From Candidatus Micrarchaeia archaeon (GTDB taxonomy: Archaea > Micrarchaeota > Micrarchaeia > Anstonellales > Anstonellaceae), in contig JBAYMR010000005.1 of the NCBI GenBank assembly GCA_041663445.1, positions 996 through 64,995 of the forward strand: a stretch of 64,000 nt of DNA. The letters are read 5' to 3'. Shown here piece by piece: positions 2-63,409 of this stretch. The translations under genes were made by a program, and so were the position numbers. A model generated the notes under the pieces. The model saw only the letters and a list, made by a program, of their open reading frames with translations. It did no database searches and was not told where the DNA came from. How positions within the stretch are numbered: position 1 is the first letter of the stretch; each line of letters begins with the position of its first letter.

Positions 2-1570
2 GCGGGCGCGACAACGCAATCCACTGTAACAGTAAAAGTGGGCACTGGAAACACCAACACCTCAAGCAACCTCCCGATAATTTCCAAGACGAGCGGCCCG
101 ACCTCGCTCTCCACGAGCCAGAGCGGCACATGGAGCATAAGCGCGTATGACCCCAACAGCAGGGCACTCACATACAGCGTAACCTGGGGCGATGGCAACA
201 ATGCGGTGCCGTCGGCATCGGATTCGGCAGCCTTGGCCCCAACGTTCCAGCACTCGTATTCGAGCGCAGGAATATACCCGATAACCTTTAGCGTGAAAAA
301 CAGCGAAGGCGTAACGGTATACAAGAGCACCGCGGTGACAGTCGGCAACCCAGGCAAGGCCATTCTCGGCAGGGTGTCCTACTGGTATGGCAAGGTGAAC
401 AGGCACAGCAACCTGAACGGCGAATGGTCTACGGACCCGGACGGGGTTTCTGGGGCAAACCTGGACATACTGACGTACTGCAAGAAATGGTTCTCCGGCA
501 CGACTGAAATCGTAGACGGCGGCACTGAAACCTCGTATGGATGGAAAGACAGGGGCAATGTCAACGACTACGTATCGTCCAAGCCGACTTACCTGTGCAT
601 TGCAGGCAAGGAAACGCAAAGCGACGGCAAGGTGAGCGTAACAGCGGACGTCACCCCGGCGGAAGTTGCCCAGTACAGCCAGGTGTACGTTACAGGCAAG
701 ATAACGTATGCGAACGCCGCGCAGGATGCCGACCAGAAGTTCAAGGTGGTCACGTCCCTCAGCAGCGCAAACGACGTGGCGTCTGACAGCAGCACAACGA
801 AAAAGACGTCCCAGGCGCAGGAGCGCGTTGATTACATAACGCTCAGCCCAGGAACGTCGAAGGAAGTGTCGGCGTACTTCACCGCGTACACGCTTGGCGC
901 AAACTACGCCGAGATAGACGTGTACCAGTACACATCGGACTGCATAACTGCAGTGGCATCGGCAAATCCGCAGTGCATAGATGGCTACAAGCTTGTGGCG
1001 TCTGCGGCGGACAAGGTGGTCGTGAAGGCGGCCGGAACCCCGCCCCAGAATGACACGGTGAAAATCGTGCTTGCGAAGGGATGGAACATGATATCCTCGC
1101 CCTCGACATCTGCAGTGAGCATCAAGGACATTGCAAGCAAATGCGACATATCCGCGAACGCATGGAGCTACGACACGTCAAAGAACCAGTATGTGGCGGC
1201 AAGCTACATCGGCGGAACCGCAGGCTTCTGGCTGCGCGCGAACGAGAAGTGCGAGTATGAGGTCGCTTCACCGTACGCAGACAGCTTCAGCGCAAACCTC
1301 AGGGCGGGCTGGAACATGATTGGAGGGATAGGCACCTCGGTGCTGCTCTCCGATTACATTGGCGACTGCAAGGTAACCTCGGGCCCGTGGAACTACTCGC
1401 CCTCGGCAAGCCAGTATGTCTACAGCTCGAAGCTCGAGCCAGGCAAGGGCTACTGGGTGAAGGTGAACGCGGACTGCACGCTTGGAGGGGACAGCATGCC
1501 TCCAAGCCCGCCGTCCAGCCAGCCATCTGCAACGAGCGCGGCGAAGGTTGCAACAACACAGGCAAATTAA
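2..1570 (+). CDS. secreted cell-surface protein with PKD-like repeat; 5' end runs off the window
   Basis: Frame is open from nt 2; the track start at 38 is an internal GTG. PKD-type motif YSVTWGDGN. Two GWNMI-containing repeats near the C-terminus. Ser/Pro-rich tail. Confidence 0.7.
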   Translation, partial: AGATTQSTVTVKVGTGNTNTSSNLPIISKTSGPTSLSTSQSGTWSISAYDPNSRALTYSVTWGDGNNAVPSASDSAALAPTFQHSYSSAGIYPITFSVKNSEGVTVYKSTAVTVGNPGKAILGRVSYWYGKVNRHSNLNGEWSTDPDGVSGANLDILTYCKKWFSGTTEIVDGGTETSYGWKDRGNVNDYVSSKPTYLCIAGKETQSDGKVSVTADVTPAEVAQYSQVYVTGKITYANAAQDADQKFKVVTSLSSANDVASDSSTTKKTSQAQERVDYITLSPGTSKEVSAYFTAYTLGANYAEIDVYQYTSDCITAVASANPQCIDGYKLVASAADKVVVKAAGTPPQNDTVKIVLAKGWNMISSPSTSAVSIKDIASKCDISANAWSYDTSKNQYVAASYIGGTAGFWLRANEKCEYEVASPYADSFSANLRAGWNMIGGIGTSVLLSDYIGDCKVTSGPWNYSPSASQYVYSSKLEPGKGYWVKVNADCTLGGDSMPPSPPSSQPSATSAAKVATTQAN

Positions 1571-2041: not shown

Positions 2042-2078
2042 GCTCCCATCCGCTTGCCTGCTGGCAAGTCTGGGGGCA
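2042..2078 (+). repeat. tRNA-Glu acceptor-stem mimic minihelix (5' leader copy)
   Basis: GCTCCCA (2042-2048, identical to the tRNA 5' acceptor strand) pairs with TGGGGGC (2071-2077, one U.G pair). It encloses hairpin CTTGCC-TGCT-GGCAAG. Confidence 0.6.
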
Positions 2079-2083
2079 CAAGC

Positions 2084-2288
2084 GCTCCCATAGTCTAGCC
2101 CGGTAAGGACGCGGGCCTTTCATTGAACTCTTTTCGGCGTATCGAAAAGCTTTCACGGAAAGAAGAAAGCCTGTAACACGGGTTCAAAAGCGAATCTGGC
2201 AATGCCGCCAACCCCTCGCAGGGTTGACGAACCTGTCGTGCTGATGCACGGCAATTTGCCCGCTTCGCGGGCAATCCCGTTGGGAGCG
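2084..2288 (+). tRNA. tRNA-Glu(UUC) with two introns (37/38 and T-loop 59/60)
   Basis: Manual cloverleaf from three exons. Exon 1 is 2084-2122: GCTCCCA TA GTCT AGCCCGGTAA GGAC G CGGGC CTTTCA. Exon 2 is 2168-2188: A GCCTG TAAC ACGGG TTCAAA. Exon 3 is 2275-2288: T CCCGT TGGGAGC G. The mature RNA is 74 nt. Confidence 0.75.
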
Positions 2289-2298
2289 TTTTTTTTTT
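2289..2298 (+). terminator. oligo-T tract immediately after tRNA-Glu
   Basis: T10 run directly after the discriminator base. Archaeal termination typically occurs at oligo-T. Confidence 0.5.
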
Positions 2299-2312
2299 CT
2301 TTTGCCAATGGA

Positions 2313-2354
2313 GCTCACAGCAAGTTGTGCAGGAGCACAACTGCGTTGGGAGCA
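2313..2354 (+). repeat. tRNA-Glu acceptor-stem mimic minihelix (downstream copy)
   Basis: GCTCACA (2313-2319) pairs with TGGGAGC (2347-2353) with one mismatch. It encloses the 7-bp hairpin GTTGTGC-AGGA-GCACAAC and is followed by a T-rich tract. It aligns with the last ~45 nt of intron 2 plus exon 3, with compensatory stem changes. Confidence 0.6.
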
Positions 2355-5751: not shown

Positions 5752-5955
5752 ATGGCAAATAGTGGAAATATGGAAAGCAACAACGGGCCTTGGATGGAGA
5801 GGAGCATTGCGCTTGCCATGCGCGCGGGCAGGCTGCACGCCGCCAGCGAAGCCTTCATCCCGTTCGTGAGAGTGTCCGGGCAGACCTTTTACGCGAACGA
5901 GAAGCCGTGCATTGTGGTGGCTGGCAGGAAGCACATTGTGGAAGAAATCGTATAG
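5752..5955 (+). CDS. hypothetical small protein
   Basis: 67-aa ORF about 20 nt downstream of the TATA-like sequence TTTATATA (5729-5736). No recognisable family. Confidence 0.3.
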   Translation: MANSGNMESNNGPWMERSIALAMRAGRLHAASEAFIPFVRVSGQTFYANEKPCIVVAGRKHIVEEIV

Positions 5956-6000
5956 CCAGCCCTAGCGCCGTTTTTTAATTTCTCCTTCTGAAATACACCC

Positions 6001-16128: not shown

Positions 16129-17379
16129 TCAGGTAAAACCATCGCCTGATTTGCCGTCCTGCACGCCTTTCCTTTCTTTTTTGCCGCCCATTTTCTCAAC
16201 AATCTCAATGTCGTTGGCTACTGCTTCCCTCAACTCATCGTAACCCTGCTTGGCAAGAATTTTGTCCTGGGCGTCTTTTGAGAGGGGTTCGATGCTGGAA
16301 TTTCGAGCGGGTTGTGTGGGTTGCAGCGATACACCCATGCTCAACGCGAGCTTTTCATAAGCGCCAGTGCCAAAGGCGGAGTCGTATTCTTGCTTGAGTT
16401 GCTCGTCACTATAAGAGGAGATACGCTCGATAATTGTGTTATATTTTTCGGTGAGTTTGTTGGCTGACAGCGTTAAATTTACCGCAGTATCCGCGCCATA
16501 AAAAAATGAGCTGCCGTGTGCGACAATAGAACGCATTTCAGACAGGGACTCCTGCCTTGCTGGTTGGAATTCAACCAAGAACAAGTCCGCTGTGGCTTGG
16601 AGTTTAAAGATTTTGGTTCTTCGTTCATCAATATGGTCCGCCGTGGCTTGGAGGTTAAAGATTTTGGTTCGTTCATCCGTATTAATCGAAGAAATGGGCC
16701 CAAATAGCGCAGCAATTTTGGATTCAAGCAAAACGCTTACATAACTGTCCCAACTGATCATGTTGGAAACCAATGTGTTGATTTCAGCCTGTGATGGGCT
16801 TTTTCCCGTCTTTTCAAAAATCACATACTCTCCATTAGCCCCAGAAGTCAGAAGATACGCCTTGCCACTTTTGGAAATTTCGATTGACCCGATGGAGCCG
16901 TTGCCATACATTTTTAGGGATTTGTCTCCGGCAATTTGATATCCTCCATCCTTGAGCGCCTGTTGCAGTGATGAGCCATTGGGGACAGATAAAATGGAAG
17001 ATTGCCCGAGATCGTACGTTTCCTTGGCGATTTTTATATAGCGGGCCATCGCAGCGGGGTTATTGGCTGTTTTCCAGAATTTCTGTTCATAGCTTCCATG
17101 CTCAGAGGCAGTAAGCGGCCTAAAAACAAGGAACTCCTTAACAACATCGGCTTTTTGCGTTTCCTCCTGAGTGCAGATCACAACACACTTAATATTGATG
17201 TGTTTGCCAAATGAATTTGAAAGTGTTTGAAGGAGAAAATCACTAGAATTGTCTTTGAAATTGATGCCGGTGCGCGCACTCGAAGAAGCAACAATCAGTT
17301 TCCTTGCGTCATCGGCGCTCTTGATGTGAACCGGAACCAGGCCGGCTGCGTTCTCTTTGTAGACCTGGAATACAAGCAT
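16129..17379 (-). CDS. orphan protein in a visibly lower-GC segment
   Basis: 416-aa uninterrupted ORF with no TM segment, signal peptide or recognisable domain. Composition is AT-richer than the flanking genes. Contains an in-frame 51-nt tandem duplication. Confidence 0.6.
   Translation of the reverse strand: MLVFQVYKENAAGLVPVHIKSADDARKLIVASSSARTGINFKDNSSDFLLQTLSNSFGKHINIKCVVICTQEETQKADVVKEFLVFRPLTASEHGSYEQKFWKTANNPAAMARYIKIAKETYDLGQSSILSVPNGSSLQQALKDGGYQIAGDKSLKMYGNGSIGSIEISKSGKAYLLTSGANGEYVIFEKTGKSPSQAEINTLVSNMISWDSYVSVLLESKIAALFGPISSINTDERTKIFNLQATADHIDERRTKIFKLQATADLFLVEFQPARQESLSEMRSIVAHGSSFFYGADTAVNLTLSANKLTEKYNTIIERISSYSDEQLKQEYDSAFGTGAYEKLALSMGVSLQPTQPARNSSIEPLSKDAQDKILAKQGYDELREAVANDIEIVEKMGGKKERKGVQDGKSGDGFT
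16585..16677 (-). repeat. 51-nt in-frame tandem duplication inside the orphan gene
   Basis: Copy 1 is 16585-16629. Copy 2 is 16636-16677 and lacks 3 nt. They encode ERTKIFNLQATADHID / ERRTKIFKLQATADLF. Confidence 0.8.
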
Positions 17380-17795: not shown

Positions 17796-17871
17796 AAGGA
17801 GAAAGTGGGCCCGACGATGGAGCGCGGCAGCGCGACAGATTTTGTGCAACAGCACAAAACAAAGGGCACAC
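17796..17871 (-). repeat. duplicate of the tRNA 3' end with acceptor-mimic fold
   Basis: The 22-mer AAGGAGAAAGTGGGCCCGACGA occurs at 17796-17817 and 17875-17896 (plus strand). On the minus strand the copy is preceded by GTGTGCCC (pairs with GGGCCCAC, one mismatch) and hairpin TTTTGTGC-TGTT-GCACAAAA. Confidence 0.6.
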
Positions 17872-17884
17872 TTTAAGGAGAAAG

Positions 17885-44272: not shown

Positions 44273-44380
44273 AGCCCCATCGTCCAGTGGTCAAGGATAC
44301 GAGGCTCTGACGAACCGGATCTTGCCCGCCTTTCGGGGCGGAGATACCTCGGGACATCGGTTCGAATCCGATTGGGGCTA
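44273..44380 (+). tRNA. tRNA-Gln(CUG) with a 35-nt canonical intron
   Basis: AGCCCCA TC GTCC AGTGGTCAA GGAT A CGAGG CTCTGA [intron] A CCTCG GGAC ATCGG TTCGAAT CCGAT TGGGGCT A. Has the A1:U72 pair typical of archaeal tRNA-Gln. Bulge-helix-bulge geometry: CTCT pairs with GGAG, flanked by 3-nt bulges. Confidence 0.85.
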
Positions 44381-44403
44381 CTCTTTTCTTTACATTAGGT
44401 TTC

Positions 44404-44449
44404 GCCCCAATTCTCGCCACCCTTCGGGTGACGATCCGATTGGGGCTAC
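44404..44449 (+). repeat. tRNA-Gln 3'-end copy folded as a minihelix (unit 1)
   Basis: GCCCCAAT (44404-44411) pairs with ATTGGGGC (44439-44446). It encloses hairpin GCCACCC-TTC-GGGTGAC. ATCCGATTGGGGCTAC is identical to the tRNA from T-loop position 59 to 2 nt past the discriminator base. Confidence 0.6.
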
Positions 44450-44477
44450 TTTATCTTTCCTCTTTCCATTAGCTGCC

Positions 44478-44515
44478 GCCCCAATTCCCGCGGGGCTCGG
44501 CTGGATTGGGGCTAT
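44478..44515 (+). repeat. tRNA-Gln 3'-end copy folded as a minihelix (unit 2)
   Basis: GCCCCAAT (44478-44485) pairs with ATTGGGGC (44505-44512) and is followed by a T-rich tract. A collapsed third unit, GCCCAAATCGGGGC, lies at 44534-44547. Confidence 0.55.
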
Positions 44516-44547
44516 TCATTTTTTTACTTTCTTGCCCAAATCGGGGC

Positions 44548-44739
44548 ATGGCAAGGCACCACCCCCGGCGCTCAAGGACAAGCGGGAAAAAAATCGTCTA
44601 CATCACGCCGTACCGGAACCTTGCGGTGGAAATGAAGCAGATGTACGAGAAGAAAGGGGAGCATGCCGAAGTCGGGTCAGAGACGGACCGGGGCGGCACC
44701 ACGCTGTTCATGGTTTATGTATTCGAGAAAGGATATTGA
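44548..44739 (+). CDS. hypothetical small basic protein
   Basis: 63-aa ORF starting at MARHHPRRSR, directly after the third repeat remnant. No family recognised. Confidence 0.35.
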   Translation: MARHHPRRSRTSGKKIVYITPYRNLAVEMKQMYEKKGEHAEVGSETDRGGTTLFMVYVFEKGY

Positions 44740-62177: not shown

Positions 62178-63269
62178 ATGGAAACCAACATACTTGGCGC
62201 CGGCCCCGCAGGGCTTTGCGCTGCGATAAACCTTGCGCGCGCTGGGAAAAGCGTCAAAGTGCATGAAAAGCGCGAAGGGGCGGGGATGCGCTTTTGCCCC
62301 AACCTGCAGGGGTTGCGCTATCTTTACATGCCGCCAGGGGAATTCCTGCGGCAGGTGGGCGTGGAAGCTGGCGTGGAATTCCGCTACTTTTCGCGCGCGG
62401 TCATTTGCACAAGAGGCAGGAAAATGGAGCTGGACTGCTCGGGCGGAAGCCAGATGCCCTTTGTGCTGCGTGGCAGCGGCGGGAAGCTGGGGGATGGAAC
62501 GCTTGATGCCGCGCTCTTTTCGGAAGCAAGAAGGCTCGGCGTGGAATTCGAGTTCAATTCGCGCGCAACCGAGCGCGACGCGCAGATAGTGGCGACGGGC
62601 AGCAGGGGCGAGCCGGACCAGGCCGCGCTTGGAAGCGTGTTTGAGAACAGCGATTTCCCGCGCGACTGCCAGCTTGTCATGTTTGACGACAGGTATTCGC
62701 CGCGAGGCTGGTACTCTTACATATTGCCCTTGGGCAAGGACGAAATCGAGTTTGTCACCTGCGTGTCAAAGCCGCACATCCCGTTGCTTTCGCAACTGCA
62801 TGCAAAGGCGATGGAAGGGAGGAAGGAAATTTCCGATGCTGTTGGCGGCAGGAAAAAAATCGCTTCCTTCGGAGGCTCGGCGTCCTCGCGCATCCCGAAA
62901 AGCGCGTTTGTTGGCGGCAAATATTTTGTCGGCGAGGCAGCCGGCTTCCAGGACCCGTACATGGGCTTCGGGATTGCCTACGCGCTGCGGAGCGGGCATC
63001 TTGCGGCGCGCGCAATGATTGAGGGAGAGGATTATGATGCGCTTTGGAAGCGCGAGTTCGGCTATTACCTGAGGAAGGACGCCGCCTACAGGTTTACGAT
63101 GTGGCTGGCGGGCGATTCGGCTGCATCGCTCGTGATGTCAAAGTACAAGGACCATCAGCGCGCGAACCTGTCCGCCGCGCTCCCTGAAAAAAATCCCGCT
63201 TACCGCGCGCTCGTCGAGGGAGTGTCGCTGCTCGCGCGGGCAAAAAAAAGAGCGAGCGGAAGCTGGTAG
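62178..63269 (+). CDS. FAD-dependent oxidoreductase (geranylgeranyl reductase-like)
   Basis: ILGAGPAGLCAA dinucleotide-binding motif and GEAAGFQDPYMGFGI. Confidence 0.75.
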   Translation: METNILGAGPAGLCAAINLARAGKSVKVHEKREGAGMRFCPNLQGLRYLYMPPGEFLRQVGVEAGVEFRYFSRAVICTRGRKMELDCSGGSQMPFVLRGSGGKLGDGTLDAALFSEARRLGVEFEFNSRATERDAQIVATGSRGEPDQAALGSVFENSDFPRDCQLVMFDDRYSPRGWYSYILPLGKDEIEFVTCVSKPHIPLLSQLHAKAMEGRKEISDAVGGRKKIASFGGSASSRIPKSAFVGGKYFVGEAAGFQDPYMGFGIAYALRSGHLAARAMIEGEDYDALWKREFGYYLRKDAAYRFTMWLAGDSAASLVMSKYKDHQRANLSAALPEKNPAYRALVEGVSLLARAKKRASGSW

Positions 63270-63409
63270 GTTCGCAGCAAGCCGCCCTATTTTTCGGCGC
63301 ACCGAAAAATGGACATCTTGTGCGTTGCGACGCACAAGACCGTCCGCTGGGACGGGATTCGCCCGCCCTGAACACTACACACTGGCCATTTTCGCGTGGC
63401 AGATTCTCC

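Follow-up and report, generated by a model that had tools for sequence, protein, structure and literature searches.

When DNA integrates at a tRNA gene in archaea, the tRNA end is left as direct repeats, and attP and attB can exchange mismatches or introns (PMC3293823). Fragments of tRNAs from integrated elements have also been reported (10.1101/2022.07.05.498093), and tRNA flanks are rearrangement hot spots with cargo between repeats (PMC3293823, PMC3218864, 10.1101/2022.07.05.498093). In Micrarchaeum, a broad-specificity epsilon2 endonuclease occurs together with tRNA introns at position 59/60 (PMC3239211). Mobile-element integration and 'intron transposition' have been proposed as routes to the non-canonical introns, splitting and rearrangement of archaeal tRNA genes, a field in which few intermediates have been observed. 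Plant mitochondrial t-elements and tRNA-sRNA dicistrons are tRNA-like processing elements. Here we compare these systems with an array of tRNA 3' ends in a window of 64 kb (the whole stretch of DNA analyzed, 64,000 nt), which belongs to the chromosome of a Candidatus Micrarchaeia (DPANN) host.

The closest likeness is to the att repeats (attL/attR) of integrative elements with SSV-type or pNOB8-type integrases and to their tandem accretion. As in those systems, what is repeated is the 3' part of a tRNA, beginning in the T-loop and reaching or passing the 3' end, the tRNA itself is intact with older copies displaced downstream, and occupied and empty sites alternate, with cargo between the repeats in some genomes. 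On the other hand, only 52-54 nt lie between the repeats of the window, a closing helix is conserved in every module, together with a hairpin that shows compensatory changes, modules accompany every tRNA examined in the genome (one of them on the 5' side), and the searches turned up neither an integrase or split int gene nor an episomal form.

The array follows a tRNA-Gln(CUG) gene (Table 1) with a 37-nt insertion at the anticodon loop according to Rfam (44310-44346), which corresponds to a canonical anticodon-loop intron plus two loop nucleotides. The T-arm is intact and without a T-loop intron. Rfam recovered one of the three tRNAs in the window; ARAGORN missed tRNA-Gln and called 0 tRNAs in the window in all. 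Core copy 1, ATCCGATTGGGGCTAC, spans from T-loop A59 through the T-stem 3' strand and the acceptor 3' strand to the discriminator A plus 1 nt, and is the 3' end of the working tRNA-Gln. An earlier reading of the DNA made from the sequence alone (hereafter the sequence-only reading) had reported a 16-nt exact repeat of this segment beginning at T-loop position 59, and we recovered it with a start shifted by one nucleotide. Its two exact occurrences in 64 kb are core copies 1 and 2, and no further match was found in the window with up to 3 mismatches allowed. The more degraded third copy that had been described is also present (GATTGGGGCTAT), as are the T-rich tracts said to close each unit (T4, T3 and T7 behind copies 1, 2 and 3, respectively). 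The number of units, given as three in tandem, had to be corrected to two units plus a native trailer. Tandem Repeats Finder reported no tandem array at the locus, the units being too divergent. The array is not an assembly artefact, because an independent Logan assembly is identical at this position.

Table 1. Features of the tRNA-Gln array and of the two other tRNA loci in the window
Feature	Position	Strand	Basis or remark
tRNA-Glu, two introns	2084-2288	+	T-loop intron at about 59/60
Upstream module at tRNA-Glu, GCTCCCA-hairpin-TGGGGGC	2042..2077	+	Fold -24.5 kcal/mol, z = -4.9
Downstream module at tRNA-Glu, T-rich leader + GCTCACAGC + hairpin + GCGTTGGGAGCA	2289..2354	+	Fold z = -4.3
Third tRNA, multi-intron	18110-17885	-	T-loop intron at about 59/60
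Downstream module of third tRNA	17796..17884	-	Leader, hairpins, 22-nt exact repeat TCGTCGGGCCCACTTTCTCCTT at 17817-17796
tRNA-Gln(CUG) gene	44273..44380	+	Rfam RF00005, 50.2 bits, E = 8.8e-8; anticodon CTG
Core copy 1, ATCCGATTGGGGCTAC	44366..44381	+	Exact 16-mer, present twice in window
Leader A, T-rich spacer TCTTTTCTTTACATTAGGTTTC	44382..44403	+	Sequence; relatives
5' arm of unit 1, GCCCCAAT	44404..44411	+	Acceptor 5' strand nt 2-7 + AT; reverse complement of ATTGGGGC
Inner hairpin of unit 1, CGCCACCC-TTCG-GGTGACG	44415..44433	+	Predicted fold; relatives
Core copy 2, ATCCGATTGGGGCTAC	44434..44449	+	Exact repeat of core copy 1
Leader B, TTTATCTTTCCTCTTTCCATTAGCTGCC	44450..44477	+	Sequence; relatives
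5' arm of unit 2, GCCCCAAT	44478..44485	+	Sequence match to unit-1 arm
Interior of unit 2, TCCCGCGGGGCTCGGCTG + GGAT	44486..44507	+	Alignment with L024
Core copy 3, GATTGGGGCTAT	44504..44515	+	12-nt repeat; tRNA-derived part is TGGGGCTAT only
Native trailer and downstream-gene leader	44516..44547	+	Orthologous trailers in L024, L022, L028, L062
63-aa conserved ORF	44548..44739	+	Relatives; no Pfam match

In the window, the DNA between copies consists of a T-rich leader, an inverted copy of the acceptor strand and a hairpin, and it contains no ORF. Both downstream copies are preceded by GCCCCAAT, which pairs with the copy around a hairpin. The perfect 8-bp pairing noted previously was confirmed in units 1 and 2 (8/8 between GCCCCAAT and ATTGGGGC). 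Unit 1 folds strongly (-26.2 kcal/mol, z = -5.2 to -6.2 vs. shuffles): in the minimum free energy structure, the closing helix has 9 bp and is followed by a single-nucleotide bulge facing a 3-nt UCC bulge, and then by the inner stem. Unit 2 folds weakly (z = -1.3 to -1.6). The Rfam check that had been suggested along with folding, run at gathering and E-value thresholds on the window plus nine loci, returned tRNA matches only and placed units and inserts in no family. Homologues of the unit-1 inner hairpin in relatives preserve pairing despite changes on both sides; MAFFT set the two hairpin subfamilies in different registers, and the unit-1-type compensatory changes were read by eye. The resemblance of the unit-1/core junction TGACGATCCG to a canonical intron start, TGACGAACCG, was dismissed as chance, relatives having GGCGATCCG or GTCGATCCG.

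Comparison of the tRNA-Gln locus across genomes, as the sequence-only reading had proposed, revealed 0, 1 or 2 modules at each of about 35 related loci (numbered with the prefix L). No unit was present in L028, L023, L034, L007-9, L017, L018, L044, L058, and L061; one was present in L005, L002, L057, L013, L022, L024, L029, and L047; two were present in the window and in L004, L025, L026, L031, and L048. Even close relatives differ in whether the site is empty or occupied, and the junctions fall inside the repeat core. Leader and hairpin modules are common to several genomes in differing order and combination: leader A holds the second position in L026 and L031, and leader B the first in L002, L024, L025, L026, L029, L031, and L057. 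The identity block starts at G53/T54 elsewhere (L013, L022, L025), repeats in relatives measure 14-22 nt, and the duplicated length ranges from 8 to 22 nt. In the L002 clade, the entire segment of tRNA and unit is inverted.

In several relatives, the position of the hairpin is taken by 0.65-2.4 kb of genes, bounded by the 3' end of tRNA-Gln on one side and by a partial repeat of it on the other. An outcome of this kind had been named in advance as pointing to att scars; no integrase was found. The statement that the spacing leaves no room for cargo is right for this genome only. Specifically, the cargo is a 168-aa ORF in L062, UbiA and MFS in L063 and L051, and a 436-aa protein in L004 and L031. 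The cargo genes are ordinary ones (UbiA, MFS, amidohydrolase-like, response regulator). The far repeat of these versions has only 4-8 nt, a length that fits illegitimate junctions as well as old att sites. Among the ORFs flanking the arrays in eight loci (2.5-10 kb flanks) and in the cargo, no integrase or recombinase was identified. An attP pattern scan of IMG/VR produced four matches, all in bacterial phages and three within coding sequence, that we attribute to chance, and GenBank phages and plasmids gave no match. DPANN mobile elements are poorly sampled.

The reading that we favor, with a probability of about 0.5, sees the array as superseded 3' ends of tRNA-Gln, stacked by repeated att-type recombination between T-loop position 59 and the 3' end. 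Incoming DNA with its own tRNA 3' segment would have recombined with the chromosomal gene, twice in this lineage, inside a shared segment running from T-loop position 59 through the discriminator and the start of the T-rich trailer. Each time, the incoming 3' end would have completed the tRNA, and the one it replaced would have moved downstream. The original end is core copy 3, followed by its T7 trailer and then the 63-aa ORF; it once held a structured insert of which ...GGCTGGAT alone is left. A first event would have brought unit 2 (leader B and 5' arm), and a later one unit 1 (leader A, 5' arm and hairpin), which lies nearest the tRNA, an order that seems probable to us. Core copy 2 would be an earlier tRNA-Gln 3' end that has since been displaced. 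To judge from its limits, A59 to the 3' end plus 1 nt, the identity block is typical of tRNA att sites of the T-loop class. We infer site-specific (integrase-type) recombination rather than another duplicating insertion, and we leave the mechanism at that level because neither an integrase nor an episomal attP was found and the hairpins bear compensatory changes. The modules would now be dispensable passengers; transcription probably continues past the weak T3-T4 tracts as far as the T7 run. The nested att scars that had been offered earlier as an alternative agree with the cargo between repeats and the empty and occupied sites, but not with the lack of an integrase.

Several features sit uneasily with att-type recombination. 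A 68-bp unit is implausible as free circular dsDNA, and therefore miniaturization by deletion or mobilization in trans has to be assumed. Many genomes share an identical junction between leader and 5' arm, an odd result if the deletions were independent. Decay would also be expected of scars, yet the 8-10-bp closing helix and the inner hairpins are kept, the latter with changes on both sides. The duplicated block could moreover be host-derived (resembling a target-site duplication, TSD) rather than element-borne, because the leader starts resemble native trailers. A bolder reading, which we consider rather unlikely, is that Micrarchaeota harbor a kind of very small mobile module that has not been described so far, depends on structure and has tRNA genes as its target. 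Such a module would enter at the T-loop/3' end or at the 5' end, bring a replacement terminus with it, stack into arrays, capture genes in its hairpin position, and turn into 59/60 and other non-canonical introns by secondary deletion or transposition.

Other classes of repeats were considered and rejected. Integron attC sites and REP-BIME clusters are likewise tandem imperfect hairpins between genes, with an outer stem, an internal loop, an inner stem and a small loop, and the outer boxes GCCCCAAT/ATTGGGGC resemble the RYYYAAC/GTTRRRY of attC. However, the boxes read AAT/ATT and not AAC/GTT, the arms change with each tRNA, the spacers have 25-30 nt, there is no intI gene, and cargo lies inside the hairpin and not between hairpins. 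The neighbors of the tRNA-Gln array are a primase, an antiporter, small ORFs, a kinase, and PurF. A CRISPR array was rejected on the grounds of only three copies of a 12-16-nt tRNA-derived repeat, 'spacers' that share the leader and 5' arm, and the negative Tandem Repeats Finder result. The footprint of a MITE or DNA transposon was rejected since the arms match each local tRNA, the duplication length varies from 8 to 22 nt, and the interiors are unrepeated in the window.

Judging from its flanks, core copy 3 is the ancestral tRNA-Gln 3' end. It has a T after the discriminator (CTAT) as in the unit-free L028, and it retains the native trailer and the conserved small ORF, as do unit-free loci. 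The 63-aa ORF follows tRNA-Gln across Micrarchaeota with units present or absent, and therefore marks the native 3' flank. The T7 run (44519-44525) may be a terminator and a TATA-like tract at once. A collapsed unit remnant had been proposed to abut the ATG of this ORF. The sequence in question, GCCCAAATCGGGGC at 44534-44547, exists but its origin from a unit was not borne out: because unit-free relatives have GCGYAAAGCCTTGCC in its place, directly before the same ATG, it is most simply taken as a diverged native leader. In relatives, the terminal copy is interrupted by a structured insert of 50-110 nt, belonging to a family restricted to last copies. Its layout is hpA-GGACAGAC-hpB-GGAT, between ATCCGAT and TGGGGC of the terminal copy, and compensatory changes occur in 7/16 pairs. 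In the comparison with L024 (...GTCGACTGGAT followed directly by TGGGGC), GGAT is the 3' end of the insert, and unit 2 of the window is a deleted remnant of this family. Core copy 3 looks 'degraded' because the GGAT upstream of it is the 3' end of the deleted insert. A covariance model of the insert family (R1) detected no intact copy in the window and matched no functional tRNA body.

These inserts bear on the suggestion of the sequence-only reading that the units derive from a T-loop-intron hairpin plus a 3' exon. In this explanation, a unit is the 3' part of an older allele (T-loop intron or structured insert plus 3' exon), left as a relic after an intron-less 3' end arose upstream; or the units are the raw material of 59/60 introns, which would arise when the first copy is deleted. 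What moves would be small structured elements, occurring sometimes as introns and sometimes within 3' modules. The systems to compare are the non-canonical introns with a bulge-helix-bulge (BHB), the splice signal of archaeal introns, and the 'intron transposition' of Thermoproteales and of ARMAN-2/Micrarchaeum with its epsilon2 endonuclease. The 59/60 boundary is a major intron site in the phylum, related structured sequences recur across tRNAs and positions, and some module interiors fall in the families of genuine introns. The terminal copies of L022, L024, L025, L029, L031, L047, and L048, and both tRNA-Val relics of L048, consist of T-loop/T-stem, insert and 3' exon (e.g., GTTCGAATCCGAT[insert]TGGGGCTAC in L022/L025 and CCAGGTTCGA[insert]TTCTACTCGGGCCCA in L048 tRNA-Val), and removal of the insert restores the tRNA 3' sequence. 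In L015 and L016, a true intron interrupts tRNA-Gln at exactly 59/60. The L073 unit has an interior homologous to a genuine intron that the same tRNA carries elsewhere, in other genomes: the linker hp-GGCAATTYGCC-hp occurs in the body intron of the third tRNA, in the T-loop intron of tRNA-Glu and in the L073 3' unit, while the L073 gene is without that intron. An element TGGGGGTGAACCCTCAGGGGG...GCCCCCTAGGG is shared by the 3' modules of tRNA-Asp and tRNA-Val and the canonical tRNA-Gln intron of L055, and it was the only match (L011/L048 to L055) when unit interiors were searched with blastn against all collected tRNA gene bodies.

Unit 1 and its relatives speak against such an origin. They are unlike any intron in the data set and have no recognizable BHB: by inspection, no staggered bulge pair was found in MFE folds, where the sole internal loop is 1 nt opposite the 3-nt UCC bulge. 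The units are also not part of the mature tRNA: they have a 3' exon copy of their own and play no role in restoring the gene, as tRNA-Gln is complete without them; only the inserts in the displaced terminal copies of relatives sit within a tRNA sequence that their removal restores. Genuine T-loop introns here pair their end segment with the 5'-exon T-loop and have no 5' arm. Model R1 matches no functional tRNA body, and the intron-less 3' end needs a separate event, that is, the recombination of the main explanation. The suggestion has support in the terminal copies of relatives, L073 and the unit-2 remnant, but not in unit 1, and as an account of the whole array we think it unlikely.

The pattern is repeated at other tRNAs. 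Modules occur at all three tRNAs of the window and at tRNA-Asp (L011) and tRNA-Val (L020, L048), and module interiors are not repeated elsewhere in the window. The repeat boundary coincides, as had been stated, with the T-loop intron site of the two other tRNAs. The upstream module at tRNA-Glu sits between the promoter and the gene and duplicates the 5' acceptor strand. At the third tRNA, the repeat reaches 8-10 nt into the trailer (22 nt); among its loci, L072 is empty and L068-L071 and L073 are occupied. Its 416-aa neighbor is an orphan protein, and Rpp21 (an RNase P subunit gene) lies directly after its unit. Extension of the contig past both window ends (L074, L075) yielded no further recognizable tRNA.

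The arms of these modules could also be seen as what remains of tandem tRNA-gene duplicates, generated by unequal crossing-over or transcript-sized duplication, that lost positions 8-48/58 and decayed into minihelix pseudogenes of acceptor 5' strand, T-arm remnants and 3' end. The 5' arm does read as the 5' strand of the acceptor joined to that of the T-stem (GCCCCA+ATCGG+T in L027, L063, and L026; GCCCG+ACG at the third tRNA in L070), A1 is included in some units (AGCCCCAAT in L057 and L048), and each period opens with a tRNA-like 5' end and closes where a T-rich trailer stops. The arm is not discriminating, however, since it equals the reverse complement of the core. The 22-nt spacer is unlike a tRNA 5' flank or promoter, no unit contains D-arm or anticodon-arm sequence, the same precise loss of 8-48 must recur at several tRNAs, and cargo and upstream modules (2042-2077) are unexplained. 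We consider decayed duplicates very improbable.

Conserved folding raises the question of function. The modules might be co-transcribed acceptor-stem-like minihelices (3' NAC, U-tract) that act as fail-safe terminators or stabilizers, or as RNase P, RNase Z or CCA-enzyme signals by which the tRNA is released from the small-ORF mRNA, in the manner of plant mitochondrial t-elements or tRNA-sRNA dicistrons. By analogy with these, a closing helix of 8-10 bp resembling an acceptor stem may be recognized, followed by discriminator and U-rich tail, and the position downstream of a tRNA and upstream of an mRNA would agree. The units fold far better than shuffles (z = -2.8 to -7.5), unit 2 of the window less so (z = -1.3 to -1.6), the closing helix is kept where its T-stem part has changed on both strands (tRNA-Glu unit), and inner stems show compensatory changes. 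Short internal T-runs (T3-T4) and a long last one (T7) suggest read-through, the small ORF of unit-free relatives starts only about 35 nt past the tRNA, which makes co-transcription plausible, and the Rpp21 gene follows the unit of the third tRNA. Nevertheless, the presence of units is not conserved, close relatives lacking them even in the same synteny (L028, L072), and copy number, order and interior sequence vary freely, with kilobases of genes inside some units. The units do not match minihelices or t-elements in detail: the closing stem and 3' UAC are present, but inner loops are of UUCG/GCA type without the TTCRA of a T-loop motif, and position 1 is mostly C opposite U72, a C.U mismatch. 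The units belong to no Rfam family, and none was called by a scan for bacterial-type terminators and promoters. A functional role of this kind seems improbable to us.

Repeats of tRNA 3' ends are a known kind of outcome of integration; what differs here is that they come as miniature hairpin modules with compensatory changes. The modules look like leftovers of repeated DNA insertion at the tRNA 3' end that share building blocks with the unusual tRNA introns of this lineage. Their partial 3' copies can be mis-annotated as tRNAs or mislead att-site predictions. Within one phylum they form a dense natural series: a given tRNA may lack modules, have one or two, have a module that contains genes, and be with or without a T-loop intron, and one intron family turns up inside the gene in some cases and within the 3' module in others. 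With such a series, population genomics and RNA-seq can test the order of events. If the mobile-module reading were true, the arrays would be DNA-level intermediates of archaeal tRNA intron gain and loss.

The units at tRNA-Gln are real and of wider occurrence than the sequence-only reading could see. The source names on its proteins identify the window as chromosomal sequence of Candidatus Micrarchaeia (DPANN), and its housekeeping genes include both primase subunits, a Na+/H+ antiporter, PurF, and PurM. ARAGORN called no tRNAs in the window; the tRNA preceding the units was identified as tRNA-Gln from its CTG anticodon. The 16 nt forming its 3' end, including one base past the gene (ATCCGATTGGGGCTAC), are repeated exactly at 44434-44449, and no further match was found in the 64 kb at up to three mismatches. 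The sequence-only reading had described this repeat, an upstream arm pairing over 8 bp with the tRNA 3' segment in both units, and a T-rich tract ending each unit, all of which were confirmed. The 5' arm GCCCCAAT precedes copies 2 and 3 of this core (starts 44404 and 44478), and all 8 of its bases pair with ATTGGGGC. T-runs of T4, T3, and T7 follow the three copies. Unit 1 folds around an inner hairpin closed by a 9-bp helix (-26.2 kcal/mol, z about -5 to -6) and unit 2 only weakly. The region was identical in an independent assembly. As to how the array formed, we infer, at roughly even odds, that it would be a stack of superseded tRNA-Gln 3' ends built by att-type recombination, the reading that we rank first.

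Using the adjacent antiporter as an anchor, 60 related loci (L handles) and longer contexts were fetched, in which about 35 distinct tRNA-Gln loci were readable. A conserved 63-aa ORF follows tRNA-Gln within about 35 nt in loci from across the phylum (L007, L008, L009, L017, L018, L028, L044, L058, L061), and this is the ancestral arrangement. Variable modules lie between the two: none in some loci, one in L005, L002, L057, L013, L045, L022, L024, L029, and L047, and two in the window, L004, L025, L026, L031, and L048. From 5' to 3', a module consists of a T-rich leader of ~22 nt, the 5' arm GCCCCAAT (frequently lengthened to GCCCCAATCGG(T)), a single or double inner hairpin, and a repeat of the tRNA 3' end. 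In other genomes the window's leaders A and B stand in reverse order and are joined to other hairpins. Inner stems vary on both strands (CGCCACCC/GGGTGACG in the window, CGCCAGCC/GGCTGGCG in L005, CGCCAAC/GTTGTCG in L057, GCAAAGC/GCTTTGC in L026 and L031, GCAATGC/GCATTGC in L048). All modules fold far more stably than shuffled sequence (z = -2.8 to -7.5), as would a functional read-through RNA serving as a minihelix-like terminator or processing signal; the free presence and absence of modules is at odds with that reading, which we place behind att-type recombination. We rank there also the derivation of the units from decayed duplicates of the whole tRNA gene, which agrees with the 5' arm and with nothing else. 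Two small ORFs, of 63 and about 87 aa, are preceded by tRNA-Gln throughout Micrarchaeota and neither has a Pfam match. In many relatives a perfect palindrome of 18 nt (GCCTTGCCATGGCAAGGC) contains the start codon of the first; the window has it in degraded form.

The native trailer and small ORF always come after the last copy. The window trailer (TCATTTTTTTAC...ATGGCAAGG) can be aligned to those of L024, L022, and L028, and a T follows the discriminator (CTAT) in both the window's last copy and L028, which is unit-free. The last core copy is the original tRNA-Gln 3' end. In L022, L024, L025, L027, L029, L031, L004, L047, and L048, this copy and no other is split, between ATCCGAT and TGGGGC, by a structured insert of 50-110 nt built as hairpin A - GGACAGAC - hairpin B - GGAT. 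The consensus of eight members has two hairpins with compensatory changes in 7/16 pairs. A covariance model made from these eight found 13 copies, none of them in the window; all lie within displaced 3' copies of tRNA-Gln or tRNA-Val or within other 3' modules. The unit 2 interior (...CGCGGGGCTCGGCTGGAT followed by TGGGGCTAT) aligns to the L024 insert at its 3' end (...CGCGGTTCGAGTCGGTCGACTGGAT followed by TGGGGCTAC); thus, copy 3, which had been called more degraded, is indeed shorter but represents the ancestral end with its insert mostly deleted. The supposed collapsed remnant at 44534-44547 was not upheld: unit-free relatives carry GCGYAAAGCCTTGCC at the same place before the same ATG, and the segment is best read as a diverged native leader. 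A second type of module (hairpin - GTGGACCAC - hairpin - TCGG) is present in L022, L024, and L048, and in L004 extra hairpins are nested within hairpin loops. Rfam has no family for the insert, the second module type, or the nested hairpins.

Some loci carry genes. In L062, tRNA-leader-GCCCCC and GGGGCTAT enclose a 168-aa ORF (0.65 kb), and the native trailer comes next. In one clade (L002, L057) the entire tRNA and unit segment is inverted, and leader plus GCCCCAAT(CGG) is followed by 1.4-2.4 kb of genes, which encode UbiA and MFS (L063, L051) or a 436-aa protein (L004, L031). The far end of this cargo is a truncated core beside the antiporter promoter (8, 7, 7, and 5 nt in L063, L051, L004, and L031, respectively), so the cargo sits at the inner-hairpin position. 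In L027 the core beside the antiporter promoter is truncated to 4 nt. No integrase domain was seen among the cargo genes named above or in the flanks examined (2.5-10 kb). In L002, L057, L003/L063, L004, L031, L051, and L027, the tRNA-Gln and module segment, together with its bidirectional TATA region, stands inverted with respect to the antiporter gene, for which the last module's T-rich tail (CTACTTATTTTAAT) now acts as the apparent TATA region. In the more distant relative L048, and also in L059, a 297-aa ORF separates the antiporter gene from tRNA-Gln; in L048 it contains AEFYGIMLGDG, a candidate LAGLIDADG-like homing-endonuclease motif.

Two other tRNAs of the window, detected solely by a custom scan, also have modules. 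At the third tRNA, the tRNA 3' end and trailer recur as an exact 22-nt repeat that closes the module, and relatives show every combination of T-loop intron and module: neither in L072, one module with its core from position 59 and no T-loop intron in L073, and both in L068-L071. Modules were also found at tRNA-Asp (L011) and tRNA-Val (L020, L048). Of two further hairpin-rich regions, the one at the 3' side of a 363-aa oxidoreductase-like ORF gave a weak Burkholderia sRNA match in Rfam (31 bits, below threshold), which probably reflects nothing more than a hairpin-rich 3' region. The other, in L075 (the same contig just past the window end), has internal repeats (CATTTCCTAGGAA; ACTTGCTCT) and no Rfam match, and may represent one more ncRNA gene that carries a 3' module.

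Features of the tRNA loci and adjoining regions (window positions unless a locus is named)
Feature	Position	Strand	Remarks
tRNA-Gln	44273-44380	+	Rfam, 50.2 bits; 37-nt insertion in anticodon loop; only tRNA detected in the window by Rfam
Third core copy	44504-44515		GATTGGGGCTAT
Small ORF, 63 aa	44548-44739	+	
Small ORF, about 87 aa	44746-45012	+	
tRNA-Glu(UUC)	2084-2288	+	Introns in anticodon loop and T-loop (about 59/60); missed by ARAGORN and Rfam
tRNA-Glu downstream hairpin module	2289-2354	+	Repeats tRNA 3' end, GTTGGGAGC
tRNA-Glu upstream module	2042-2077	+	Repeats 5' acceptor strand; between promoter and gene
Third, multi-intron tRNA	18110-17885	-	GGGCCCG...CGGGCCCA; T-loop intron; 3' module to 17796
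RNase P Rpr2/Rpp21 subunit gene	17714-17412	-	Directly downstream of third tRNA and module
416-aa ORF	16129-17379	-	Sole match among 5.8 billion clustered proteins is itself
Hairpin-rich 3' region	63241-63356	-	Three GC-rich hairpins, then T8 run
Intergenic region, 436 nt	L075 6277-6712		Strong TATA-like box, several hairpins
297-aa ORF	L048 93-986		Reversed upstream region
TGGGGGTGAACCCTCAGGGGG...GCCCCCTAGGG element	L011 about 5940-5990	-	
TGGGGGTGAACCCTCAGGGGG...GCCCCCTAGGG element	L048 4621-4672		
TGGGGGTGAACCCTCAGGGGG...GCCCCCTAGGG element	L055 about 90-140	-	
TGGGGGTGAACCCTCAGGGGG...GCCCCCTAGGG element	L018 about 5198	-	
TGGGGGTGAACCCTCAGGGGG...GCCCCCTAGGG element	L043 about 3994	-	

The modules share sequences with tRNA introns. 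The L073 module interior (GCCGAGC..GCTCGGCAATTCGCCAG-hairpin-C.G.CGAT) corresponds to a true body intron that the same third tRNA carries in the window and L068-L072 but not in L073 itself, and its linker GGCAATTYGCC is also in the tRNA-Glu T-loop intron. A palindromic element (TGGGGGTGAACCCTCAGGGGG...GCCCCCTAGGG) is found in the L011 tRNA-Asp module, in reverse in the L048 tRNA-Val module, and in a canonical tRNA-Gln intron of L055. Copies of this element, roughly 50 nt long, lie beside or within different tRNA genes of various Micrarchaeota in both orientations. In L015 and L016, tRNA-Gln has a true intron at 59/60, the start point of the window repeat. Micrarchaeum is noted for an epsilon2 splicing endonuclease of broad specificity and for its many disrupted tRNA genes, some with introns at 59/60 (PMC3239211), and in Thermoproteales intron sequences common to different tRNAs have been described as 'intron transposition' (PMC4033280). 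The earlier proposal that the units derive from a T-loop-intron hairpin plus 3' exon accounts for the terminal copies and for interiors of intron-family sequence, but it does not account for unit 1, whose folds on inspection show no recognisable bulge-helix-bulge and which resembles none of the tRNA introns compared, and it additionally requires a recombination step; we rank it, too, after att-type recombination.

Att-type recombination is ranked first because recombination at tRNA attachment sites would give identity blocks of this shape, sites that are empty in some genomes and occupied in others, stacks whose oldest copy lies last, versions with cargo, and hot-spot behaviour, and because archaeal tRNA-gene integration is documented to leave such tRNA-end repeats and to move introns between attP and attB sites (PMC3293823; 10.1101/2022.07.05.498093; PMC3218864). 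Outside this model stand the failure to find a recombinase gene among the cargo genes and flanks examined, or an episomal attP in IMG/VR and in GenBank phages and plasmids, the tiny size of the inserted DNA, and a leader/arm junction that is the same across genomes; the closing helix and hairpins, which are evidently maintained, are likewise left unexplained. The arrays belong to an already known kind, in which tRNA genes prone to recombination are partly duplicated. What is unusual here is that miniature hairpin modules occur at all tRNAs examined in the genome and that some of their sequence families are shared with tRNA introns.
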